A stretch of DNA of 22,380 nt. It comes from Candidatus Wolframiiraptor gerlachensis. Lineage in GTDB: Archaea > Thermoproteota > Nitrososphaeria_A > Caldarchaeales > Wolframiiraptoraceae. Position 1 is the stretch's first letter. Each line of letters begins with the position of its first letter. Where the stretch lies: the NCBI GenBank assembly GCA_021323375.2, contig JAJPCT020000009.1, forward strand, positions 1-22,380. The letters run 5' to 3'. Shown piece by piece: positions 3,652-22,380 of the stretch. The notes beneath the pieces are model-generated. The model worked only from the letters and a program-made list of their open reading frames with translations. It was not told the origin of the DNA and ran no database searches. The translations under genes and the position numbers were made by a program.

Positions 3652-6441
3652 TTGGGAAGTATCGAGCGGATGTTTGATCCCGAGACAGTGGCGGTAATCG
3701 GGGCAACTGATAGGGAGGGCTCGGTTGGCAGGGCGATAATGGAGAACCTACTAGAGTGGAGGAGTAATCGGGAGATCTTCCCGGTTAACCCGAATAGGGA
3801 GAGCGTGCTCGGGCTGAAATGCTATCCGAGCATCAAGGATGTTCCGAAGCATGTTGACCTCGCGATAATAGCTGTTCCAGCGAAGCTGGTCCCAAAGGTT
3901 GTCGAGGAGTGTGGGGAAGCTGGCGTCGATGGCGTTGTAATAATATCTGCTGGTTTCAGGGAGGTTGGTGAAGAGGGTAGAAAGCTCGAGGAGGAGATAA
4001 AGCGCATCCAGCAGAAGTATGGTATGAGGATTCTGGGGCCAAATTGCTTCGGCTTTATCAGGCCCCACATAGGCCTTAACGCCACATTCTTCAGGAAGAT
4101 GCCTGAGCCTGGGCCGATAGCATTTATCTCGCAGAGCGGGGCTCTCGGCTCCGCGATCTTAGACTGGGCTCTTACGCACCATATAGGATTCAGCATGTTC
4201 ATCTCACTCGGCTCCATGCTCGACATAGACTTCGGAGACCTGATAGACTACCTTGGAGAGGATCCTGAAACACGTAGCATACTAATCTACATGGAGGGGA
4301 TTGATGATATTAAGAGAGCTAGAAAGCTCATGAGCGCTATCAGGGGGTTCGCGAGGACAAAGCCTATACTGATATTGAAGCCGGGAAAATATGAGGCGAG
4401 CGCGAGGGCCGCGAAATCGCACACCGGCGCGATGGTCGGCAGCTTCGAGGTCTATGATGCCGCGTTCAAGAGGGTTGGCGCCATCCGGGTCGACGAGATA
4501 GAGGATTTATTTAACTGTGCTAGGGTTTTGGACTCCAGATATCTCCCGGCCGGCCCGAGGCTCGCGATAATAACCAACGCGGGAGGGCCGGGTGTGATCG
4601 CAGCAGACGCAGTCATAGATTATGGGGGGGAGATGGCGAGGCTCTCGGAGAAAACGATTAATGCCCTCGACATGATACTGCCGCCGCACTGGAGCAGGGG
4701 AAACCCAATAGACATCATAGGAGATGCCGATGTCAAGAGATATGTTGAGACGCTCAAGGTCTGTCTAAACGATCCCGGGATAGACGGCATAATCGTGATA
4801 TATACGCCGCAGGGGGCGGCCAAGCCCATCGAGCTCGCTGAAGCGCTTATCGACGTGATCGCCGAGAAGAGGAAGCCAGTCCTCACAGTCTGGATGGGTG
4901 GAAGCGAAGAGGTCCGGGAAGCTAGACAGTTATTCTCGAAGAATGATATTCCATGCTATTCGACGCCGGAGGATGCCGTGAGGACATACATGTACATGTA
5001 CAAGTATAAGCGGAACCTAGATCTCCTATACGAGACGCCGAGGGAGATCTCGGTCGATTTATCGCCGCCGATACATCATCTTAAGGTTCTGATCAAGAGG
5101 GCGAGGAGGGAGAAGAGGGATGTTCTGCTGATAGATGAGGCGGAGCGTTTCATGAAGGCTTACGGCATACCGACCCCAGAGGGTGGTCTCGCGAAAAGCG
5201 TTGGTGAGGCCATGCTGATCGCCTCCAAGATAGGATACCCGGTGGTGCTGAAGATAGTATCCCCGGACATAATACATAAGGTTGATGTCGGCGGAGTCAT
5301 CACGGGGATAAAGAATGAGAATGAGCTCAGGGAGGGGTTCAACAAGCTTATCCAGAGGATTAGGGAGAAGATGCCTGAGGCGCGGATCGAGGGCGTCTAT
5401 GTCCAGAAGATGGTGACGAACACAGATTATGAGCTCATTATCGGATCGAAGAAGGATCCGATCTTCGGCTCCGTGATACTCTTCGGGGCGGGAGGGTTTG
5501 GCGTCGAGCTCTTCAAGGATTATGCGATCGGCCTCCCGCCGCTCAACCAAGTCCTGGCAAGAAGGCTCATGGAAGAGACGAAGATCTACAGGTTCCTCGT
5601 TAAGGGGTATAGGAACAAGCCACCCGTCGACATCGCGAAGCTCGAGGAGATACTTGTGAGGTTCTCCAATATGCTTGTCGACTTCCCGGAGATCAAGGAG
5701 GTTGACATTAACCCGCTCCTCGTCTCGAGGAGCGAGGCATGGGCTGTTGATGTAAGGATAGTGTTGGATCATGAGCTGGGGGATAGAGAGCCGGAGCAAT
5801 ACTCCAATCTCGTCATAATGCCGTATCCATCGAAGTATATCGTCCCTTATCGGCTGAGGGATGGGACGCAGGTGATTCTTAGGCCTATCAGACCGGAGGA
5901 TGAGCCCCTAGAGGCCGAGTTTATCGAAAATCTCTCGGAGGAGACCAAGAGGTTCAGGTTCTTCTACGTAATCAAGGAGATAACTCATGACATGCTTGTG
6001 AGGTTCTGTAACATTGATTATGATCGTGAGATGGCCATAGTTGCCGAGTACATGGATGGCGGTGGAAGGAGGAGGATTGTTGGTGTTGGGAGGCTGATAA
6101 TGGATCCATTCAGGAGGCGCGGGGAGTTCGCGGTTGTCGTCGCGGACGATTTCCAGGGAAAGGGCCTTGGCACCAAGCTGATAGATATGCTCATACAAGT
6201 AGCCATGGATAAGGGCCTTGAATCAATCTATGGCTTGGTGATGCCGGAGAACATTAGGATGATAGAGCTCTGCAGGAAGCTTGGCTTCGAGCTAAGGCAC
6301 ACGCCGGAGGAGGTTATCGTGGAGCTGAACCTGAAGGGCGAGAGAGTATCCGAGATACCAGAGCGGGAGATAATAGCACGCTCGAAGAAGAAGACTTTCC
6401 TCAAGGCTAGGCCGCCGACCATAGAATCCCCTGAGAGCTGA
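3652..6441 (+). CDS. NDP-forming acyl/acetate-CoA ligase (alpha + ATP-grasp) fused to a C-terminal GNAT; Pat/YfiQ-type protein lysine acetyltransferase architecture
   Basis: CoA-binding VAVIGA, LGPNC, ISQSGA, KSHTG, TNAGGPG and NPIDI; ATP-grasp GYPVVLK..HKVDVGGV and DINPL; GNAT LRPIRPED and EFAVVVADDFQGKGLG. Confidence 0.93.
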   Translation: MGSIERMFDPETVAVIGATDREGSVGRAIMENLLEWRSNREIFPVNPNRESVLGLKCYPSIKDVPKHVDLAIIAVPAKLVPKVVEECGEAGVDGVVIISAGFREVGEEGRKLEEEIKRIQQKYGMRILGPNCFGFIRPHIGLNATFFRKMPEPGPIAFISQSGALGSAILDWALTHHIGFSMFISLGSMLDIDFGDLIDYLGEDPETRSILIYMEGIDDIKRARKLMSAIRGFARTKPILILKPGKYEASARAAKSHTGAMVGSFEVYDAAFKRVGAIRVDEIEDLFNCARVLDSRYLPAGPRLAIITNAGGPGVIAADAVIDYGGEMARLSEKTINALDMILPPHWSRGNPIDIIGDADVKRYVETLKVCLNDPGIDGIIVIYTPQGAAKPIELAEALIDVIAEKRKPVLTVWMGGSEEVREARQLFSKNDIPCYSTPEDAVRTYMYMYKYKRNLDLLYETPREISVDLSPPIHHLKVLIKRARREKRDVLLIDEAERFMKAYGIPTPEGGLAKSVGEAMLIASKIGYPVVLKIVSPDIIHKVDVGGVITGIKNENELREGFNKLIQRIREKMPEARIEGVYVQKMVTNTDYELIIGSKKDPIFGSVILFGAGGFGVELFKDYAIGLPPLNQVLARRLMEETKIYRFLVKGYRNKPPVDIAKLEEILVRFSNMLVDFPEIKEVDINPLLVSRSEAWAVDVRIVLDHELGDREPEQYSNLVIMPYPSKYIVPYRLRDGTQVILRPIRPEDEPLEAEFIENLSEETKRFRFFYVIKEITHDMLVRFCNIDYDREMAIVAEYMDGGGRRRIVGVGRLIMDPFRRRGEFAVVVADDFQGKGLGTKLIDMLIQVAMDKGLESIYGLVMPENIRMIELCRKLGFELRHTPEEVIVELNLKGERVSEIPEREIIARSKKKTFLKARPPTIESPES

Positions 6442-15280: not shown

Positions 15281-15298
15281 TTACTAATATTTATAATG

Positions 15299-15373
15299 CG
15301 GGCCCGGGGGGACTTGAACCCCCGACCCCCGGCTTAGAAGGCCGATGCTCTATCCAAGCTGAGCTACGGGCCC
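15299..15373 (-). tRNA. tRNA-Arg(UCU), intronless, CCA not encoded
   Basis: Minus strand reads GGGCCCG-TAGCTCAGCTTGGATAGAGC-A-TCGGC-CTTCTAA-GCCGG-GGGTC-GGGGG-TTCAAGT-CCCCC-CGGGCCC-G, a full cloverleaf. Confidence 0.97.
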
Positions 15374-15760
15374 AAAATCGTTGCTCAAGTGGGGGAGGTC
15401 CCCCGACCCCAATCAGTTTGAGGATTGTTTGAGACAGTATTTTAAGGTTAATCCGGTGGTTGTTAGGAGGCGGCAGCATTATTCGATTGTTAAGATGCTT
15501 GATTTTATGTGGATGGAGCTTGGTCTCGGCTTAATTGATGATCTACTGCGATGTGATGTTAGGCAGTTAACCCTCGCGATTCAGGCTTGAATCAATAATA
15601 TGGTCAGGGAGGCTGGAGGCTGAGGGAGCTGAAAAAGGCCTAATCGTGATGGGGAAAACATGATTCCGTATTAGATTATTTCCCTGCCGGATTTTGTTAA
15701 AGACTATTCTTCCACTCTTAGCTCTATCTTGAGGCTCATCGAGTTCGTGATTCTTAACAG

Positions 15761-15985
15761 TTATTCTTCAGGCTTAGCCTTCATTACTACTAGTGCTTGA
15801 TAGTATGAACCTTGCTTCTTGACCGGCACCTCAAGAACCGCCATCATCTTCCCGGTCTCCAGCGATGTCGACTCAAGCCTGAACTTTCTATACTCCTCTC
15901 CAGCGGCCTCAAAGATCCATATATGCGCGGTGGACTCGCCGTAGCCTGACCGGCCCGTAGAGGCTTTAGTCTTATCGACGATCAA
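15761..15985 (-). CDS. Hypothetical protein, possibly the frameshifted C-terminus of the upstream gene
   Basis: Beta-strand-like 74 aa; this frame stays open upstream through a CTCTCTC tract near 16017-16023. Confidence 0.4.
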   Translation of the reverse strand: MIVDKTKASTGRSGYGESTAHIWIFEAAGEEYRKFRLESTSLETGKMMAVLEVPVKKQGSYYQALVVMKAKPEE

Positions 15986-16653
15986 TGCGTAGGATCTTGT
16001 GGAGTCCTCAGCTTTGGAGAGAGTGATAGGTAAATCCCGCCACGACCCTTAGCCTCGCTCCAAGAGAGCTCTATTGATACTAGATATCTTCCAGACTCAA
16101 TTCTGAGCGGCATGTCATAGCCAGGAATAATCGCTGTTATCAGAGGACAAGAGACGTTAAGCCTCATGATGCATGGCATATCAATCGTATAGTTATTGTT
16201 ACTCGACACCAGCAGCATCTTGCCACTCAAGCCAATAGCTGATAGATCATCGGTCCATACATCAATAGGCCTAAAAAGCAGGAAATCCACATTCTCCACA
16301 TTGATCACCGCGATAACACTAAACCCCTTGACACCATCTACACTTGAGATCTCAACCTCTAGATAAATCCTAGACGGATCGGTGAGCAGAATGCTGGTAG
16401 AGGAGGTGGAGGTAGTAAACTGAGGTTGCATGTAGTAAAGATAGTAGAAGGAAGAAACGACCCCGATTACGACAAATATCAAAACTAGGAGACCAGCCCT
16501 AAATCCGGTATGAAGGGATAAGTCCGAACAAAAACCCATCAACCCCATATAATCTTTACTAAACGGGCAACAGCCTGTTAGTAAAGCAGATCCACATGTA
16601 TAAATGTTCTGCAAGTTTTTGTTTTCGAGCATGATTAATATGGCCCCCTCCAA
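15982..16653 (-). CDS. Membrane-anchored hypothetical protein (true start probably downstream, near 16548)
   Basis: Hydrophobic segment AGLLVLIFVVIGVVSSFYYLYY, Thr/Ser linker TTSTSSTS, then a beta-rich domain with a Cys pair. Confidence 0.6.
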   Translation of the reverse strand: MEGAILIMLENKNLQNIYTCGSALLTGCCPFSKDYMGLMGFCSDLSLHTGFRAGLLVLIFVVIGVVSSFYYLYYMQPQFTTSTSSTSILLTDPSRIYLEVEISSVDGVKGFSVIAVINVENVDFLLFRPIDVWTDDLSAIGLSGKMLLVSSNNNYTIDMPCIMRLNVSCPLITAIIPGYDMPLRIESGRYLVSIELSWSEAKGRGGIYLSLSPKLRTPQDPTH

Positions 16654-17031
16654 TAATCCTGCTCATCTGCTGGCAATCCTGCTAACATTATAGCCTACAG
16701 CGAGGGGGATAGGCCCAGCTCGAGGAGATAACATATTGTTCTTTTTGGTTCTTTCAGCGATCTCTTGCCATGCAAAGCCACCGAGCCATCTTCAGGCAAC
16801 CCTTGTTTCTCTCAAAGGTTCTCCATCTCGAATAGAATTAATTTTAACATCATTTTTCTGATTTGTCGGCTTCCATATCGAAGCTTATAAAGAAGTTTTA
16901 AGGAAAATACACTTTTACTCTACTTTCTGGGGTCGGGTTTCCGAAATTACCGAAGCGGGGAGTCTACGAGAGGGCTACGGATAGCCCAAGTCTTTCAGGA
17001 TTGTAGACATATGCATTGGGGGCTGTTATTC

Positions 17032-17279
17032 AGGCTCCTAAACTCTAGGATGAAGCCTCCTATAAAAGAGTCTCTATGAGCATCTTCGGATTATTCACGA
17101 TGGCAGAATCCACGGCCATGAACATGGTACAAGGAGAGCCCATAACTTTTTCACGAAAGCCCAAACCTCTCACTCATTGCTAACTCGTGCGACAAAATTT
17201 TAGATCCCTGTGACATAAAGAAAACCAAAAGGCGATATTTTTCTTCACTTACTTATAAACTCCCGGAGCTTAGGAGCCT
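17032..17279. mobile_element. MITE-like element or IS remnant (248 bp) with 19-bp imperfect terminal inverted repeats
   Basis: Left end AGGCTCCTAAACTCTAGGA (17032-50) vs reverse complement of the right end AGGCTCCTAAGCTCCGGGA (17261-79): 16/19 identical, outer 10 perfect. No target-site duplication seen. Confidence 0.5.
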
Positions 17280-17378
17280 CCAAACCTTCAAATTTGGATA
17301 AAAGACGCTATGTTCTAATAGTAAAGGAGGCTTGTGAGCAACATGTAATCGCTGTATCTTGATACCACAAACTATTAA

Positions 17379-17402
17379 GGTATATCTTTATATACCATGG
17401 TA
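17379..17402 (+). promoter_or_regulatory. vapBC promoter with overlapping palindromic operator
   Basis: GGTATAT-CTTT-ATATACC (17379-96) overlaps TATA TTTATATA (17387-94), 28 nt before the ATG; second palindrome TACCATGGTA (17393-402). Confidence 0.65.
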
Positions 17403-17422
17403 ACTACAAGTATGTATGGTAA

Positions 17423-17671
17423 ATGAGCACTACGGTATCTATTAAGGTTCGTAGGGAGGTTGTTGAACTGGCCGATAAGATGGTTAGGTATGGGCTTGCT
17501 AGAAGCAGGTCTCATGCATTCAATATTCTCATTGAAAAGGGCTTGAATGAGGTTGTGAGGGAAGTGGGGTTCTGGGAGCAGGTGTATAGGGATGTTGAGG
17601 AGCTCGAGAAGTCGGGCTTCAGGATCGCTCACGGTAGACTGAGTAAGATGCTGGAAGAGGAGAGACATTGA
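17423..17671 (+). CDS. vapB: VapB-type antitoxin (ribbon-helix-helix-like)
   Basis: N-terminal beta strand TTVSIKV plus helices (GLARSRSHAFN); its stop overlaps the PIN gene start. Confidence 0.8.
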   Translation: MSTTVSIKVRREVVELADKMVRYGLARSRSHAFNILIEKGLNEVVREVGFWEQVYRDVEELEKSGFRIAHGRLSKMLEEERH

Positions 17672-18087
17672 TGATATATATTGACACAAATGTCATCATA
17701 TCGTATGTTGATGAAAAGGACCCTAATCATGATAAAGTGGTAGCTATGTCTATGCAATTGGATGGAGGGAGAGTTGTAAGCCAGCTCACACTACTTGAAT
17801 TAGCATCCATTTACGCAAGAGCTGAATTGGAGAAACCAATACCACTAGCTATGTACTCTATCAAGAGATTTGGCGCCTCGATAGTTGAAACAGATCTTAA
17901 CATTATTGTGAAGGAAAGCCTAAAACATGTTCCCATGCTCAGGCTTAAAACACTTGATCTACTACACATTACTATAGCCAAGGCGATTGGAGCGAAGTCC
18001 ATAGCCACCCTTGACAAAGACATAGCTAAGAAAGCCGACGTAATCAAAGACATCATGGGAATCGAGATCATAACAATACAAGATTAA
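17671..18087 (+). CDS. vapC: VapC PIN-domain ribonuclease toxin
   Basis: IYIDTNVIIS, TLLEL, LKTLDLLH and IATLDKD acidic PIN residues; TGATG coupling (alternative TTG start at 17668). Confidence 0.92.
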   Translation: MIYIDTNVIISYVDEKDPNHDKVVAMSMQLDGGRVVSQLTLLELASIYARAELEKPIPLAMYSIKRFGASIVETDLNIIVKESLKHVPMLRLKTLDLLHITIAKAIGAKSIATLDKDIAKKADVIKDIMGIEIITIQD

Positions 18088-18654
18088 AGGTCTTCACCTC
18101 TGAGAACATCTTATGCCTATTTTGGCCATTAATTCTTAGAGGCTTTTTAGGGCAATCTGGCATTCTGATTCTTATGAAGGATAACGTGTATTATATCATC
18201 CTGCTTTTTTCCTAATCTGCTGAGAAAGTTTGCCAGTATGATATGAGACAGCTAACTTATGGTGATAAATAATAAACCTCATTCCAAATGTCCATCCAAT
18301 TAAATACTAACTACACACATCATACATTAAGGTGAACCTTTTCGAAAGAGGGCTGTAAAATTTTATCACGAAAATACGCGATCAAGGTGCATAACAAGAA
18401 AGGAAATATACGCAAACATGATACAATGTTAATCATAATTCTTAGCAAAGCCTGGCCATGAAATCAGATCCAAATCCCGAAGCACTTCATAGATTTTACA
18501 CCTAATATCATAGCGGAGCCGATCATTTAACATCTTGAAAAATCTCACTTATTTTTCAATTTCTTCTTTTTAGAATGTTCTAAGGGTTCTCAGGCTAATA
18601 TAGTCATGCGGGCTGATTAGGCTCTTTTAGGGTATGTGCGCTTTCTTTGCAAGC

Positions 18655-20634
18655 CTAACTTATTCCTATAGTTAGGAGGAGTTTTGAGGCTATTCCGCCG
18701 ATGAGTATTGCTAGGCTTATTTCCGCTAGTGTGATTACTAGGGTTGTTTTTGTTCCGGTTTCTTTGAGTAGGACGGAGATTGTGGCGGCGCATGGTATGT
18801 ATAGTATTGTTACTATGGAGAGTGTTATCATCTGGTTTGGCGTGAGTGCTTGTGAGAAGTCTATGGTCCCGAGGAGTGCCGCGAGCGTTGTTAGTATGAG
18901 CTCCTTTCTCAGGATTCCAAAGATTAGTAGGACACCAGTTTCCTTTGGTAATCCGAGCCAGCTGGAGGTTATCGGGCTTAGGGTGCTTGATATCAGGTCT
19001 AGCAGGCCGGAGATTTCTAGGACTTTTACGAGTGCTCCCATGGCGATTATGAGTGGGGCTGCTATCTCAAGGTATTCTCGCAGCCTGATCCAAGTCATCG
19101 TTAGTATCGTCTTGATGCTTGGCACCTTGTAGCTCGGCATCTCCATTATCAGCTCAACGGGTACTCCTGGGAGGATTCTTGAGGCGATGGAGCCTAGGAT
19201 GAAGGCGATGAGGAGTGTGAGGAGATAGAGCCCAATGACCCATGACACTCCAAAATATCTTCCCACTAGCCCCATAACGACAACGGTTACGGCGGAGCAT
19301 GGCACGAGCGTCGTCATTAAGATCGTTATGATCCTCTCCCTCCATGTATCCATGATTCTTGCCGCGAGGCATGCTGGGACGTTGCAGCCGAATCCTAGGA
19401 GCATGGGGATTACGGCCTTGCCATGGACGCCTGCCTTATGCATTAGAGAATCCATTAGAAATGATACTCTCGCAAGGTATCCCCAGTTCTCCAAGAGGAA
19501 TGTGAGGAAGTAGAGGGGGAGGATGTATGGTATGGCTAGGCCGAGGAGGAATAAGATGCTCTCGATGGCTGACCAGCCGACCTCGGATATCGGGTTGATT
19601 CCGAGGATACGAACCCATGCATCGCGCATGATTTCCGACAAATATTCCTCGGAGAGTTCTGCGATTATTCCGCCGACCCCGAAGACTATTGAGAAGAGGC
19701 CGGCGAATATTATGGCGGCGAGAATGTAACCTAGTATCGGATGTGTTGCGATTTCATCGAATCTATCTCCTAGAGTTGGTTTTCTGGGCTTCACTATCCT
19801 TATGCATCTCCTAGCGATCTGGCTCGCGATGCAAGCTCTCTCATTCGCGATTATGATTAATGAGTCGTGTCCATGGATGCTCTCGAGCTCGGTGATCAGC
19901 TCGCTGGCCAGCTCTATAACCCGTGGATTCTTCTCCCCAACGAGGCCCCATATCTCCTCATCCTTCTCCAGAAGCTTTAGGGCGATCCATCTCCTCGGAT
20001 ATGGTAGGTCAATCTCCCCTAGAGCGGCCTCCAGCCTCTCAACCCTCTCCTCAACCTCTTTGCCATATCGGATCTTCTTGGGAGAGTATCCGGTTCTATG
20101 GAGCTCTATAGCGGCATCGAGTATCTGGGCCACACCCCTCCCGCGCGTCGCAATCGTCGTGACGACCGGCACCCCGAGCTCCTCCCTAAGCACATCCACA
20201 TCTATCTCGATGCCATACTTCTCCGCTAGATCCATCATGTTCAATACTAGGATGAGCGGCCTCTCAAGCTCGAGAAGCTGGAGAGTGAAGATCAAGTGTC
20301 TCTCAAGCGCTGTTGCATCGACCACGTTAACCACAACATCCGGCCTCTCCCTCGCGATATAGCTCCTAGAGATCTTCTCCTCTATTGAGAGATGTGTCAG
20401 CGAATATATTCCTGGGAGATCAATAACCTTCATTATCAGGCCTTTGTAATATAGCGTTCCCTCCGCCTTATCCACTGTGGTCCCGGGCCAGTTTGCTATA
20501 TGCTGATGAAGTCCCGTCAGTTGATTAAAAATCACGCTCTTGCCCACGTTCGCCTGACCAGCTAAGGCTATCCTGAGATCCGGCTCGGCGTGGCCGCCTC
20601 TGATCCCACGAGCTGGGATACTCGCATACTTCAT
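18655..20634 (-). CDS. feoB: Ferrous iron transporter FeoB
   Basis: G1 GQANVGKS, G2 NWPGTT, G3 DLPG, G4 NMMD; gate motifs GFGCNVP, VPCS and YIPC. ATG 20634 has GGAGG 8 nt upstream (alternative TTG at 20649). Confidence 0.96.
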   Translation of the reverse strand: MKYASIPARGIRGGHAEPDLRIALAGQANVGKSVIFNQLTGLHQHIANWPGTTVDKAEGTLYYKGLIMKVIDLPGIYSLTHLSIEEKISRSYIARERPDVVVNVVDATALERHLIFTLQLLELERPLILVLNMMDLAEKYGIEIDVDVLREELGVPVVTTIATRGRGVAQILDAAIELHRTGYSPKKIRYGKEVEERVERLEAALGEIDLPYPRRWIALKLLEKDEEIWGLVGEKNPRVIELASELITELESIHGHDSLIIIANERACIASQIARRCIRIVKPRKPTLGDRFDEIATHPILGYILAAIIFAGLFSIVFGVGGIIAELSEEYLSEIMRDAWVRILGINPISEVGWSAIESILFLLGLAIPYILPLYFLTFLLENWGYLARVSFLMDSLMHKAGVHGKAVIPMLLGFGCNVPACLAARIMDTWRERIITILMTTLVPCSAVTVVVMGLVGRYFGVSWVIGLYLLTLLIAFILGSIASRILPGVPVELIMEMPSYKVPSIKTILTMTWIRLREYLEIAAPLIIAMGALVKVLEISGLLDLISSTLSPITSSWLGLPKETGVLLIFGILRKELILTTLAALLGTIDFSQALTPNQMITLSIVTILYIPCAATISVLLKETGTKTTLVITLAEISLAILIGGIASKLLLTIGIS

Positions 20635-20665
20635 TGGAGAGCCCTCCAAAGGGGATCTCGCTAGA

Positions 20666-20974
20666 CTAGGTCTCCACTATTATCTTCGAGGCCAAGCCCC
20701 TTCCAATCATGAATCTCGAGCCATGTACCTCAACCTCTATGGGGCCGCCGAGTGGAGCCTTTCTAACGACCTTGATCTTGGCTCCGGGTAGTATGCCGAG
20801 GTCTGCAAGCCTCTTAACCGCGCCGCATCCGGGGCCGCCTTTACCTCTCCAGCCCCATCCAAGCCTACGCCTAAACCCTCCCCAGAACCCCGTGCTAGAG
20901 GATGGCCCTCCAAATGTTATCTCCACAACCACTGCCTCCTGGCCCTCACTAAGCGAGGTTAATGGAACCCTCAT
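20666..20974 (-). CDS. feoA: FeoA (SH3-like) with a Gly/Arg/Trp-rich insertion
   Basis: PLTSLSEG..VVVEI and KRLADLGILPGAKIKVVRKAPLGGPIEVEVHGSRFMIGRGLA; directly upstream of feoB. Confidence 0.92.
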   Translation of the reverse strand: MRVPLTSLSEGQEAVVVEITFGGPSSSTGFWGGFRRRLGWGWRGKGGPGCGAVKRLADLGILPGAKIKVVRKAPLGGPIEVEVHGSRFMIGRGLASKIIVET

Positions 20975-21022
20975 AGAGGCTCATCGCCCCCTCGATCCAT
21001 GAAGGTTTTTCAGGAACCCTGA

Positions 21023-21056
21023 TTTAAGTTTATTATGTAAAGTCATGTGTTTTACA
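21023..21056. promoter_or_regulatory. Divergent promoter region with candidate operator TGTAAA-N9-TTTACA
   Basis: AT-rich TATA-like block TTTAAGTTTATTA (21023-35) directly followed by TGTAAA (21036-41) and TTTACA (21051-56). Confidence 0.6.
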
Positions 21057-21100
21057 GCGCTATTTTCACGGTTAAGCCGTTTGCCAGGGGGGAGTCGTAG

Positions 21101-21820
21101 ATGAGGATGGAGGAGATAGTCTCGGGTATTAGGGCTATTCTCGCGATGAGGCTTGTGAAAGATCACGGCTTTAGCAGGAAGAGGGTGGCCGAGGTCTTGG
21201 GGATGAGTCAGCCGACGATAACACTTTACCTGAATAAGAGGAGGGCTTCATCATCCGCGAGGAGGATTATGGGGAATGAGGCGGCGAGGCGCTATCTCGA
21301 CGAGCTCATCGAGAAAATACTGTCTAGGGGAATGTTGACTGAGGGCGAGCTCTATGATGCGGCCTTCAATATCAGGAGATCTCTTGAGGTGAGTGAGGGG
21401 GTTAAGGTCGTCCCCAGCGAGGTGAGTGGTGAGGTTGCGAGAATACTCGAGTTCTTGAGGAGAAGGGTTCAGGCCGAGCAGGAGTCTGCTGAGGAGTTCA
21501 TGAGAGCTGCTATAAACCTGAAGGATGATCTTGCTCGGATGATCTTCAGGGCTCTTGCAAGCGACTGCCTGAGGCATGCAGACATCCTGATGACCCTTAT
21601 CTCGGCGATAGAGAGGGGTGGGGCCGTCGATATAAGCCAGCTTAAGAAGATGGATATTGAGTCGCTTCTTAGGAAGGAGGAGGAGGCGCATATAGGAGGC
21701 CTAGGGGAGGTTGAGAAGCTCCTACCCGAAGGCTTCAGCACACTGCTTGTCGAGTTCATCAAGAGTGATGAGGAGAAGCATTCTAAGGTCCTGAGAAGGA
21801 TCATGAGCATGATAAGATAG
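21101..21820 (+). CDS. HTH transcriptional regulator fused to a C-terminal ferritin/rubrerythrin-like domain
   Basis: N-terminal IRAILAMRLVKDHGFSRKRVAEVLGMSQPTITLYL (COG2522-like HTH); C-terminal E126...D155-C156-x-x-H159 and E193...D223-E224-x-x-H227. Confidence 0.8.
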   Translation: MRMEEIVSGIRAILAMRLVKDHGFSRKRVAEVLGMSQPTITLYLNKRRASSSARRIMGNEAARRYLDELIEKILSRGMLTEGELYDAAFNIRRSLEVSEGVKVVPSEVSGEVARILEFLRRRVQAEQESAEEFMRAAINLKDDLARMIFRALASDCLRHADILMTLISAIERGGAVDISQLKKMDIESLLRKEEEAHIGGLGEVEKLLPEGFSTLLVEFIKSDEEKHSKVLRRIMSMIR

Positions 21821-21838
21821 GGGTGATTACGCGCCCCA

Positions 21839-22380
21839 TCAAAGCCTGATAATCCTCGCTCCCACGGCTTGCGCCAAGTTTTTCGGTATATCTATGAACG
21901 CCCTACATCTTAGGAGTATTGCCGAGTCGCTTGTTGCTATTATCTCGCCCGACTTCGCCAGTATAGAGTCCACGGTTTTCGCGGTCCTAGCATCACCCCT
22001 TAAGCCCATCTCTGATAAGAGGTGTCTAGTCAAGCCAGCAACCTCTCCACTCCTGCTAATCTGGGACTCATATAACACCTTAACCTCGGCGACATGGGCG
22101 TTCTTCAGGAACTCTAGTATCATTTTAAGAGCGTTCTCTGACAGATTTGATGGCCTATATTTTGAATGCTTTTCCCTAATATCTCTCAGCACTTCGTCAT
22201 CGCATAGTATCAGGGGCTCTCCTCTCAGCATCGCCTCAACGGTATTCAGCACGTTGAATCCATCCACGAGAATCCTCCTCCCCACCAGCTGCTCAGGCCC
22301 AATGATCTTAGATCTTATGATCTCGGCCTCGCTCTCCGGCATAACTGAAAGGAAGAGGAGGGATCTCTCTGCCGTGCTAA
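21839..22380 (-). CDS. DUF434 / PIN(NYN)-like domain protein, 5'-partial
   Basis: The frame stays open to the window edge (STAERSLLFLSVMPESEAE...); ILVDGFNVLNTVE, LCDDEVLRD, SRSGE and IATSDSAIL motifs. Confidence 0.82.
   Translation of the reverse strand, partial: STAERSLLFLSVMPESEAEIIRSKIIGPEQLVGRRILVDGFNVLNTVEAMLRGEPLILCDDEVLRDIREKHSKYRPSNLSENALKMILEFLKNAHVAEVKVLYESQISRSGEVAGLTRHLLSEMGLRGDARTAKTVDSILAKSGEIIATSDSAILLRCRAFIDIPKNLAQAVGARIIRL

Follow-up and report, generated by a model that had tools for sequence, protein, structure and literature searches.

The window analysed here, a stretch of 22,380 nucleotides of DNA from the hot-spring archaeon Candidatus Wolframiiraptor gerlachensis, contains two iron-uptake genes and, divergent from them, the gene of a putative regulator. 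The gene for ferrous iron transporter B, feoB (18655–20649, minus strand), begins with TTG, with an in-frame ATG five codons further in, and encodes a protein of 664 aa that matches TIGR00437 (E 2.6e-148; 495.4 bits, cut-off 315.65) and contains the Pfam domains FeoB_N (E 1.1e-61), Gate, FeoB_Cyto and FeoB_C. The product of feoA (20666–20974, minus strand; 102 aa) matches PF04023 (E 6.7e-22) in two stretches, its FeoA domain being divided by a Gly/Trp-rich insert. The regulator gene (21101–21820, plus strand; 239 aa) is separated from feoA by a 126-bp spacer (20975–21100), and both the reading frames and the spacer coordinates bear out the divergent arrangement described in an earlier sequence-only reading of this DNA. 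Convergent with the regulator gene lies a DUF5616 gene (21839–22342, minus strand; PF18481, E 8.2e-43), which recurs at 4 of 12 related loci, immediately downstream and again in convergent orientation at three and about 2.2 kb away at the fourth; it is treated here as a neighbour only, with no claim to membership of the regulator system.

The usual controllers of feo operons are Fur or DtxR/IdeR-family proteins. Neither was found in the window, as the sequence-only reading had stated, and Fur has no match in the whole genome (89.5% complete), but that statement does not extend to DtxR beyond the window, since the genome's only full DtxR-type gene lies on contig C1, within an ABC-3 transporter operon. 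The protein that it encodes could be the iron sensor.

The spacer, taken as the control region common to feoA and the regulator gene, was aligned with its orthologues to give a set of 11 sequences. All 11 spacers agree at T50, A52, T55 and T56 in a TATA-like AT-rich box, TTTAAGTTTATTA (21023–21035), which has a presumptive TATA-box function and may be an archaeal promoter element that is bidirectional or shared by the two genes. Directly abutting it is the candidate operator TGTAAAGTCATGTGTTTTACA (21036–21056), an exact match to the inverted repeat TGTAAA-N9-TTTACA, placed beside the shared TATA-like block just as first described. Conservation of this palindrome in orthologous intergenic regions had been proposed as a test, and it is indeed conserved: the arms GTAAA and TTTAC are invariant in all 11 spacers while the sequence between them varies, their separation is 9 nt in seven, 8 nt in two and 10 nt in two, and in three sequences (L007, L009 and L013) the outermost pair T..A has changed symmetrically to C..G. 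In other clades different inverted repeats (GTGAA-N6-8-TTCAC, TTCAC-N3-GTGAA and repeats of GTTAAC) occupy the same place after the TATA-like box. Like members of the one-component metal-sensing repressor class, the regulator is thus accompanied by a conserved inverted repeat, the candidate operator, at a promoter of genes for metal homeostasis.

Three further elements were recognised in the spacer. The block GAAGGTTTTTC (21001–21011), with partly conserved columns among the 11 sequences, lies about 20–25 nt to the left of the TATA-like box, and the leftward (feoA) transcript could start there. A second conserved box, GCTATTTTCACG (21059–21070; family form GTTATTTTCGYG), with G85, A88 and T90–T92 invariant, is also found in the spacers of genus g4 and may be a minus-strand, leftward TATA/BRE or an additional binding site. 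A putative Shine-Dalgarno sequence, GGGGGGAG (21087–21094, plus strand), precedes the regulator ATG in G-rich alignment columns. Within the window alone the palindrome is unremarkable, at least one match with up to two mismatches being obtained in 26 of 100 shuffles. The 1.28-Mb genome has the pattern GTAAA-N8-10-TTTAC at this locus and at a near-duplicate of it on contig C8, and nowhere else, and one-mismatch hits to the operator number 34, against 65–69 for reversed-motif controls; no further copies of the operator were found in the genome, so that no wider iron regulon is visible.

The regulator, as judged from its sequence, combines an Xre-type helix-turn-helix (HTH) with a helical domain that appears to belong to the ferritin-like/rubrerythrin superfamily. 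The N-terminal domain (residues 1–98; 21101–21394, plus strand) consists of the HTH followed by two helices; residues 19–49 match Pfam HTH_3 (PF01381) with 24.2 bits (cut-off 23), the family profile matches the solved Xre-type protein 3op9 (E 4.3e-5), and in the AF2 model the per-block pLDDT falls from 97 (residues 11–20) to 68 (residues 91–100) across the domain. A Pfam scan of the protein gave no match to Fur (PF01475) or DtxR (PF01325 and PF02742). A DNA-binding domain is therefore joined to a putative sensor domain with conserved metal-ligand-like residues, the composition of the one-component repressor class. A 92%-identical relative is labelled “predicted transcriptional regulator” in one source.

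The C-terminal domain (residues 106–239; 21416–21817, plus strand) was delimited from alignment invariants, Pfam Rubrerythrin (PF02915) and profile matches to solved structures. In translation and alignment it carries the residue pattern originally reported, E126, C156xxH159, E193 and E224xxH227, in which five of the six positions of the di-iron motif E, ExxH, E, ExxH are present (E126, H159, E193, E224 and H227). At the sixth, where the first ExxH would have its Glu, the window protein has C156 and most relatives have Ser, which leaves the classical di-iron site incomplete. The replacement of this Glu by Cys, given as a feature of the domain, holds for the window protein but not across the family, because position 156 is Cys in 15 of 52 relatives and Ser in the remaining 37. 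Invariant in the 52 relatives, whose identity goes down to 23%, are E126, D155, H159, E193, D223, E224, K226 and H227; a set of 54 full-length sequences shows no substitution at H159, E193, D223 or H227 and at least 90% conservation at E126, D155 and E224. Conservation of H197 is limited to the close clade. In the alignment to 9qq4, D155 precedes the position of the missing Glu, and this invariant residue is a better ligand candidate than the clade-specific C156.

The assignment to the ferritin-like superfamily, also proposed beforehand as a test, finds profile support across the family. PF02915 is matched by the C-terminal domain of 46 of the 52 relatives (E ≤ 0.01, best 1.8e-6), and three full-length relatives pass its cut-off of 22.8 bits (26.8, 25.9 and 23.6 bits); the window protein itself scores 13.2 bits (E 0.12), below that cut-off, and its C-terminal domain scanned alone matches no Pfam family at E ≤ 0.01. 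Against solved structures the family profile matches bacterioferritin 9viw (E 1.2e-6) and mini-bacterioferritin 9qq4 (E 0.004), and in the alignments to solved bacterioferritins the invariant residues fall where the ferritin-like motif has its ligands. We infer that these residues bind metal and that the metal is iron. The AF2 monomer model is of high confidence (pLDDT 91.6, pTM 0.82), and its best Foldseek matches are all ferritin-like, but with E values of at least 0.077, TM scores of 0.36–0.46 and rmsd of 8–20 Å; VIA-align matched only a generic helical hairpin, within residues 1–69 (best Z 9.7, Snf7; EncB, Z 9.2).

A homodimer model obtained a score of 0.82, the best control scoring 0.00; in calibration 20 of 30 proteins with structures solved as one-chain pairs attained this mark, as did 1 of 23 single chains, although the dimer job, unlike the calibration runs, included Fe ligands and a custom alignment. 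At least 72% of contacts are common to the runs, with a partner pLDDT of at least 78. The predicted interface is limited to residues 111–237, and its most confident cross-chain pairs are D223–D155, D223–H159, D155–H227 and K226–D155. In this model the metal site probably spans the dimer interface and is formed between the two subunits, and the bringing together of helices from two chains would explain why the monomer superposes poorly on solved folds; the high dimer score may also reflect memory of solved domain-swapped rubrerythrins. The confinement of the modelled interface to the domain in which the conserved residues lie also suits a plainer proposal, namely that the protein is a local transcription factor whose helical domain merely dimerises, its acidic and His residues being structural or binding a non-metal ligand, with iron sensed by the DtxR-family protein whose gene is present in the genome. 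Fold searches fall short of proving a bundle of the ferritin-like kind, which leans the same way, but the coincidence of invariant residues with ferritin-like ligand positions in profiles of solved bacterioferritins argues against this proposal, as dimerisation alone has no need for E, D/H, E and ExxH to be conserved down to 23% identity; nor does it account for the repeated, independent linkage to metal importers described below, which calls for a metal-related signal. We consider it quite improbable.

The family is wider than first noted: it was found in Caldarchaeales, Thermoproteaceae and many metagenomic archaea, including those of soil and peat. The two-domain regulator occurs in one copy per genome and adjoins its presumed target genes. 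Linkage of homologues to iron or other metal genes had been set as a test of the idea, and the linkage is found. Divergent feoA-feoB genes are present at 10 of 12 orthologous genome loci, that is, at all 10 that are informative, the other two ending at a contig edge; within the taxonomic family of the window organism, genus g1 has feo genes upstream in 8 of its 9 genomes, g4 in both of its 2, and g3 in all 3 that were examined. In wider relatives the immediate neighbour is an FTR1, NRAMP or ZIP-like gene (most of the latter scoring under the Pfam Zip cut-off), a PhnD-like ABC transporter with ABC-3/ZnuA, or a co-directional ferritin gene. Metagenome loci were taken as the best 80 of 349 retrieved with one peptide pattern, and the sample is for this reason not unbiased; among them a metal-type neighbour or a PhnD-like ABC transporter was seen at 58 of 78 loci. 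When these best 80 of 349 loci are clustered at 70% identity, a transporter adjoins 16 of the 21 clusters that are informative (that is, with upstream DNA), being NRAMP, FTR1 or ZIP-like in 15 and a PhnD-like ABC transporter in one, and the remaining 5 have no metal-gene neighbour. Such a neighbour is likewise absent from 11 of 11 Thermoproteaceae loci, from 3 of 4 loci of family f3 and from genomes G297 and G387 of the window organism's own family. A tree of 72 rows shows 18 changes of neighbour type, and its well-supported branches require that FTR1 and NRAMP neighbours each arose at least three times.

FeoAB and FTR1 are specific for iron and ferritin stores it, while for the NRAMP, ZIP and ABC-3/ZnuA families Mn or Zn is as frequent a substrate as Fe. 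The presence of these latter families next to the regulator, the capacity of carboxylate/His sites to bind Mn(II), and the fact that the solved sulerythrin entries among the Foldseek matches are loaded with Fe, Mn, Ni or Co, would agree with a regulator of the same architecture and operator logic whose effector is Mn(II) or Zn(II), or with a broad-specificity divalent-cation sensor. This is nevertheless unlikely, given the iron-specific neighbours FeoAB, FTR1 and ferritin, the position of Fe(II) as the sole substrate common to all neighbour types, and the existence in the genome of a DtxR/MntR-like gene in an ABC-3 operon, a more usual Mn/Zn sensor.

Rubrerythrin-type di-iron sites react with peroxide or O2, and the nearest sequence families of the C-terminal domain are rubrerythrin, sulerythrin and bacterioferritin. 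A stable iron or di-iron cofactor could accordingly report redox state, O2 or H2O2, its oxidation switching DNA binding so that import is turned off under oxidative stress, a function for which the sequence-only reading had allowed. However, Pfam scans of neighbouring genes showed importers and a ferritin, with no peroxidase, superoxide reductase or thioredoxin gene seen among them, and the canonical di-iron site lacks one of its bridging Glu residues. The family occurs both in Wolframiiraptor, reported to be an anaerobe (PMC9246946), and in archaea of soil and peat, and a redox or oxygen signal has, on balance, a low probability.

The fusion of a ferritin-like domain to a DNA-binding domain also brings to mind Dps, the DNA-binding member of the ferritin superfamily, and with it a function in DNA protection or iron oxidation instead of sequence-specific regulation. 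This idea has very little to recommend it when set against an inverted repeat that is conserved, specific to each clade and fixed in its position at the promoter, the Xre-type nature of the HTH and the single two-domain copy beside target genes; there is no sign of a cage, the dimer being the sole assembly modelled.

The reading that we favour, by a little over even chances, is that the protein is a dimeric, autoregulated repressor of iron import that senses a metal, probably Fe(II). Such a one-component transcription factor would have two Xre-type HTH domains joined by the dimerising rubrerythrin-like domain, which would hold a carboxylate/histidine metal site with E126, D155 (plus C156 in this clade), H159, E193, E224 and H227 as candidate ligands. 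With enough Fe(II) in the cytoplasm, the dimer would be loaded with metal, occupy TGTAAA-N9-TTTACA and, as the operator abuts the shared TATA-like box, block access of TFB and RNA polymerase in both directions, so that feoAB and the regulator's own gene would be repressed; when iron is scarce, the site would empty, affinity for DNA would fall and iron import would be switched on. Both the identification of the DNA-binding repressor with the metal-bound form and the promoter geometry are inferred. The proposal fits poorly with one clade (L083 and L085), in which a ferritin gene is transcribed together with the regulator, contrary to a simple logic of iron-loaded repression, and the signal may instead be another metal or redox state. 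Linkage, operator conservation and profile-based fold nonetheless lend support to the original idea of a one-component regulator with a modified ferritin-like site that controls iron uptake and itself.

The position of relatives beside many iron and metal importers across Archaea points to an undescribed family of metal-sensing regulators. A bolder and more tentative proposal, to which we give somewhat less than even credence, is that this protein is the founding member of an archaea-wide, unrecognised structural class of metalloregulator, in which helices of two subunits would form a rubrerythrin-like di-metal site, iron binding would bridge or set the dimer and so license the HTHs to bind an inverted repeat, and the regulator would be the counterpart of Fur in lineages that lack it, rewired repeatedly to FeoAB, FTR1, NRAMP, ZIP and ABC importers and to ferritin.

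The proposed logic resembles that of Fur and DtxR/IdeR/MntR, in that a one-component dimer, probably autoregulated, would act at an inverted-repeat operator that overlaps a metal-uptake promoter, but there is no sequence relation, and neither the Xre-type HTH nor the rubrerythrin/ferritin-like sensor is found in those families. To our knowledge, archaeal iron regulation is known almost solely through DtxR- and Fur-type proteins, and no iron sensor has been named for Caldarchaeales, Thermoproteaceae or many uncultured soil and peat archaea. MDR1 is one archaeal DtxR-type metalloregulator; Idr and TroR are others (PMC3074139, PMC5737653, PMC10783522). With rubrerythrin, sulerythrin, bacterioferritin, mini-bacterioferritin and encapsulated ferritins the regulator shares profile similarity and the pattern E...xxH...E...ExxH. 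Rubrerythrin and sulerythrin dimers are domain-swapped, and for the regulator, too, the model predicts that helices from both chains interdigitate around conserved residues, as in these dimers and in encapsulated ferritins. The regulator differs in its HTH fusion, its lack of a rubredoxin domain, and Ser or Cys for the first ExxH Glu, with an invariant Asp before it; its model also superposes poorly on solved members, and neither a cage nor an enzyme role is implied.

The concept of a helical di-iron bundle that senses iron availability, and is neither enzyme nor store, recalls the hemerythrin-domain iron/oxygen sensors FBXL5 of mammals, BRUTUS/HRZ of plants and the bacterial hemerythrin-coupled signalling proteins. 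Their fold and His-rich ligand set are different, however, their outputs are a ubiquitin ligase, a diguanylate cyclase or chemotaxis instead of an HTH, and none of them is, as far as we know, archaeal. The N-terminal 95 residues are homologous to stand-alone Xre/“COG2522”-type HTH proteins of Thermoproteota (about 110–140 aa, with many representatives of 100–130 aa), which lack the C-terminal metal-site domain, and the matches at E ≤ 1e-10 in 350 of 401 genomes are mostly partial matches to such proteins.

No published description of an HTH–rubrerythrin-like regulator family was found in the literature. According to a 2024 review, “no fewer than 12” structural families harbour metallosensors, and the words rubrerythrin, ferritin-like and hemerythrin are absent from its first 300,000 characters. 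If the sensor is a ferritin-like carboxylate/His site, it would add a new structural class to these families. It would also make iron homeostasis accessible to testing in organisms that are difficult to cultivate, and supply a compact, thermostable, iron-responsive switch. The PhnD-like ABC transporters, for which we know of no metal transport, would by their occurrence in the position of FTR1 be suggested to be metal-related. Homologues are present in cultured Pyrobaculum and Thermoproteus, which makes bench work feasible.

The feoB (18655-20649; TIGR00437, E 2.6e-148) and feoA (20666-20974; PF04023, E 6.7e-22) genes lie on the minus strand and diverge from the plus-strand ORF of the 239-aa regulator (21101-21820). 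The 126-bp spacer between feoA and the regulator gene holds a TATA-like box, TTTAAGTTTATTA (21023-21035), directly left of the candidate operator, the inverted repeat TGTAAAGTCATGTGTTTTACA (21036-21056), which follows it immediately. These coordinates, the residue numbers and the palindrome had been proposed in the sequence-only reading, and all of them are correct according to the ORF calls, the spacer sequence and the motif match. The window is the entire contig C9 of a genome of 1.28 Mb in 27 contigs (89.5% complete), and the regulator is 92% and 82% identical in its nearest public relatives, which are MAGs named Candidatus Wolframiiraptor (Caldarchaeales, formerly 'Aigarchaeota'). In the FeoA protein, an insert of some 30 residues rich in Gly, Trp and Arg (about residues 20-50) divides the FeoA domain into two Pfam stretches; in one relative (locus L010) tblastn aligns an even longer stretch to FeoA, 131 columns. 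A DUF5616 gene (21839-22342, minus strand) is convergent with the regulator gene, stands directly downstream in the close relatives L003-L005 and is 2.2 kb off in L006.

Homologs of the regulator are linked to iron or other metal genes. On contigs chosen as one genome per species, feoA-feoB is divergently upstream in 10 of 12 loci, and the other two end at the contig edge, 19 and 77 nt before the gene begins. Across 401 genomes of the phylum, a search lists 68 two-domain matches (E <= 2e-48), all of them in f1 (the family to which the window belongs), in f2 and f3 (sister families within the order) and in a family that is Thermoproteaceae according to the source names (f14; Pyrobaculum, Thermoproteus); most of the other genomes match only through a stand-alone HTH of 110-140 aa. 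With neighbours assigned by Pfam and seed tblastn, feo genes are found upstream in f1 in 8 of 9 genomes of genus g1, in both genomes of g4 (as feoA-feoA-feoB) and in the three g3 genomes examined; there are no feo genes upstream in G297, which has a tRNA there, or in G387. A PhnD-like ABC transporter is divergently upstream in 15 of the 16 genomes of the f2 genera g6, g11 and g13, and the locus of the remaining one (G381) has only about 150 nt upstream; g6 also has an ABC-3/ZnuA metal transporter convergent downstream of the regulator. In f3 the PhnD-like transporter is downstream on the same strand in one locus and three loci have no metal gene, and in Thermoproteaceae none is found beside the regulator in 11 of 11 loci.

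In genus g8 of f2, two regulators that are almost the same and share one operator, CTTTGTGAAATAATTATTTCACAAAG, lie opposite different genes: an FTR1 iron permease, divergently upstream in G114 (locus L017), and the PhnD-like binding protein of an ABC transporter in G285 (L018); loci L060, L064, L073 and L058 may be compared. The PhnD-like transporter ('Phosphonate-bd', PF12974) is the regular divergent partner of the regulator in f2, and metals or metal chelates may be what these 'phosphonate' transporters of Caldarchaeales carry. A conserved protein of 143-145 aa that belongs to no Pfam family is encoded divergently from the regulator homolog in Thermoproteaceae (L046:5727-6158, L051:4498-4929, L052:6101-6538, L054:4483-4920 and L055:5752-6183); its source name is 'conserved hypothetical protein' in Pyrobaculum islandicum, and Thermoproteus tenax has it as 'hypothetical protein'. 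Its gene may be a target of the homolog.

A metagenome scan with a single peptide pattern, from which the Cys variant was excluded, found 349 relatives, and the best 80 of the 349, that is, the most query-like loci, were kept; the gene is intact in 78 of these, which form 24 clusters at 70% identity. A metal transporter gene (NRAMP, FTR1, ZIP or ZIP-like, PhnD-like ABC) lies within about 520 nt upstream in 58 of the 78 intact loci from these best 80, and 12 of the 20 loci that have no such neighbour have less than 400 nt of upstream DNA. Counted by informative clusters among the same best 80, 16 of 21 have a transporter neighbour and 5 have none. Two of the ZIP neighbours exceed the Pfam Zip cut-off and the rest, which match in Pfam at E 2e-4 to 8e-3 or have no match, are tied to those two by tblastn (E < 1e-6). 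One cluster has a co-directional ferritin gene (PF00210, E 1.7e-27) behind the regulator, its start overlapping the regulator's stop. The association proposed from the single locus is supported as a linkage to iron or metal genes, among which the PhnD-like ABC transporter is not known to carry metals; the Thermoproteaceae loci, the three f3 loci, G297 and G387 lack such a neighbour. On a maximum-likelihood tree of 72 regulators (L084, L096, L120, L143 and L147 were left out because of length or stop codons), the neighbour label changes 18 times, and the well-supported branches force at least three origins each of FTR1 and NRAMP and at least seven changes for ZIP. These changes imply that the regulator has been paired repeatedly with different importers, whose common substrate is Fe(II).

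The palindrome, which had been noticed in this spacer alone, is conserved in the orthologous ones: the arms GTAAA and TTTAC are invariant in 11 of 11, while the sequence between them varies and is 9 nt long in seven, 8 nt in two and 10 nt in two. The outermost pair, T..A, becomes C..G on both sides in L007, L009 and L013, and the conserved TATA-like box always abuts the repeat on the left. Other clades have their own repeats, which were located at the equivalent place after a TATTTA-like box: GTAAA-N9-TTTAC in genus g3 (L038), GTTAATTAAC in genus g4, GTGAA(A)-N6-8-(T)TTCAC together with ATAAC-N3-GTTAT in f2, TTCAC-N3-GTGAA in the NRAMP-, ZIP- and FTR1-linked peat and soil clades, and GTTAAC repeats in a ZIP-linked soil clade. 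Clade-specific repeats at one position are the pattern that would be expected of a transcription factor family that co-evolves with its sites. To the right of the operator there is a second conserved box, GTTATTTTCGYG (window 21059-21070 and the orthologous spacers), and the f2 palindrome ATAAC-N3-GTTAT is a separate element that adjoins the start of the divergent gene; both could be promoter elements or sites of another factor.

Within its own genome, GTAAA-N8-10-TTTAC occurs at this locus only, apart from a second copy of the locus on contig C8. One-mismatch matches to the operator number 34 in the genome, as against 65 and 69 for reversed-motif controls, and give no sign of a wider regulon there. 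Three near-matches on contig C14 were considered as further sites and set aside as chance occurrences, since the DNA around them is AT-rich and shows no metal gene. We consider it likely that the regulator acts locally, as a transcription factor for the adjacent metal importer and for its own gene.

The placement of the operator speaks for repression. Seen from the rightward regulator gene, the repeat would fall between the TATA-like box and the presumed transcription start; seen from the leftward feoA, it would occupy the BRE position beside the shared box, or lie downstream of the second conserved box when that box is read on the minus strand. Archaeal repressors typically bind at either of these positions. 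If the regulator works as Fur and DtxR do, DNA would be bound by its metal-loaded dimer and freed when iron is scarce. That one clade has a co-transcribed ferritin gene, and that many homologs in Thermoproteaceae are unlinked, suggests that the direction of regulation and the regulon may differ between clades.

Other iron sensors could also act on feoAB. Fur has no match in the genome, which is 89.5% complete, and the only full DtxR-family gene (161 aa; C1:7433-7918, equivalent to L065:1483-1968) comes directly after ABC_tran and ABC-3 permease genes on contig C1, which probably form a Mn/Zn/Fe ABC importer operon with its own DtxR-family regulator. This protein is more likely the regulator of the adjoining ABC-3 transporter than a second input to feoAB.

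The two-domain character of the regulator emerges from the family more than from the single protein. Residues 19-49 match Pfam HTH_3 barely above the cut-off (24.2 bits; cut-off 23), the C-terminal half alone gives weak Pfam matches to Rubrerythrin (E 0.12) and Ferritin (E 0.14), phmmer against the PDB returns chance-level rows only (E >= 0.1), and NCBIfam has no family for the protein (best E 0.086). A word-indexed search found 26 close relatives. At E <= 1e-3 an exhaustive profile search yields 460 proteins, 69 of which also pass E <= 1e-10; some fifty have both domains at full length (216-278 aa). Among the 52 C-terminal domains taken from the loci, Rubrerythrin matches 46 at E <= 0.01, Phenol_Hydrox 18 and Ferritin_2 12, and three full-length relatives exceed the Rubrerythrin cut-off. 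The family profile matches solved bacterioferritins (9viw, E 1.2e-6; 9qq4, E 0.004) as well as de novo designed ExxH helical bundles, and the ferritin-like nature assigned to the C-terminal domain is supported, through the relatives, at the profile level. Rubrerythrin-like domains of 135-166 aa also exist alone (G109:C11:20629-21045, G228:C13:66456-66851 and the proteins P0081, P0084 and P0087), as do HTH versions, and both halves of the regulator also occur as separate genes.

Conservation in the family is concentrated on ligand-like residues. In 52 sequences, with identity down to 23%, E126, D155, H159, E193, D223, E224, K226 and H227 are invariant; a 54-sequence full-length set keeps H159, E193, D223 and H227 without exception, and E126, D155 and E224 in at least 90% of its sequences. 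H197 is invariant in the close clade and unconserved more widely. The sequence-only reading had stressed a Cys in place of the first ExxH Glu. The corresponding Glu of 9qq4 does align with position 156, which is Cys in 15 of the 52 sequences, the window's clade, and Ser in the remaining 37; the Cys is therefore a local variant and not a family-wide feature. The invariant feature of the putative site is D155 followed by [S/C]-x-x-H159.

The AF2 model of the full-length regulator (pLDDT 79.6) retrieves nothing from the PDB with Foldseek at E <= 0.001, and neither does that of the C-terminal domain (pLDDT 91.6, pTM 0.82), which superposes poorly on every solved chain. The top Foldseek rows of the latter are all ferritin-like (PA2169, sulerythrin, rubrerythrin, ferritins and bacterioferritins) and reach a probability of 0.99, but at E >= 0.077, TM 0.36-0.46 and rmsd 8-20 Å. 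VIA-align covers the first helical hairpin only (residues 1-69) and is generic, with Snf7 as the best match (Z 9.7); EncB reaches 9.2 and rubrerythrin 8.9.

The homodimer model offers a reason for this poor superposition. It scores 0.82 against 0.00 for the best control, a mark reached by 20 of 30 proteins solved as one-chain pairs and by 1 of 23 solved as single chains. Unlike the calibration of the tool, the job for the regulator carried four Fe ions and a custom alignment. The runs have at least 72% of contacts in common, the partner pLDDT is at least 78, and the modelled interface comprises residues 111-237 only. The cross-chain contacts of highest confidence (D223-D155, D223-H159, D155-H227 and K226-D155) join conserved residues, so that helix B residues of one chain would face helix D residues of the other. 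The modelled dimer resembles the domain-swapped dimers of rubrerythrin and sulerythrin and the encapsulated ferritins, the likeness here being that of a model, and its score may draw on memory of solved domain-swapped dimers of the rubrerythrin type. Taken together, Fe(II) as the ligand, an inter-subunit carboxylate/His site and a metal-loaded repressor form a combination that we favour slightly.

Neither Pfam nor NCBIfam has a family for the two-domain protein, and the source names of its relatives are 'hypothetical protein' or 'predicted transcriptional regulator'. In the ESM Atlas the protein comes closest to unnamed archaeal clusters (Thermoplasmatota, 138 members; Nitrososphaerota, 94; Thermoproteota, 87), a minority of whose members carry PF02915 and PF01381. 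No description of an HTH-ferritin or HTH-rubrerythrin regulator was found in open-access papers and preprints, supplements aside; the Wolframiiraptor paper (PMC9246946) has no occurrence of feo, ferrous, rubrerythrin or 'transcriptional regulator', and the words rubrerythrin, ferritin-like and hemerythrin are absent from the searched part of a 2024 review of metal sensing. One-component metalloregulators are already known; what is new is the rubrerythrin-like domain as a predicted metal sensor and, probably, the inter-subunit site.

The copy of the locus on contig C8 (C8:22907-30042) is an inverted, 97.25% identical copy of window 15298-22380 (7.1 kb), in which every ORF is broken by indels. 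Since indel events (104, of which 92 are single-base and 48 in homopolymer context) exceed mismatches (78), the C8 copy resembles an assembly of the same locus made a second time with many errors, or the locus of another strain, and not a paralog. The exact-arm site at C8:24247 sits inside this copy and was rejected as an independent operator target. The copy begins exactly at a tRNA-Arg (window 15298-15373), and a 53-bp partial repeat of the tRNA-Arg end occurs at C8:34321-34371, some 4.3 kb past the tRNA end of the copy; such a boundary and partial repeat are the pattern that an element integrated at the tRNA would leave. Elsewhere in the window, an 82-aa ORF runs into the beginning of a 139-aa PIN-domain gene (17423-18087, plus strand; PF01850, E 3.2e-16) in a VapBC-type toxin-antitoxin layout, and the plus-strand gene at 3652-6441 encodes a 929-aa protein in which an ADP-forming acyl-CoA synthetase (CoA_binding, Succ_CoA_lig, ATP-grasp_5) is fused to a GNAT acetyltransferase domain at the C-terminus.
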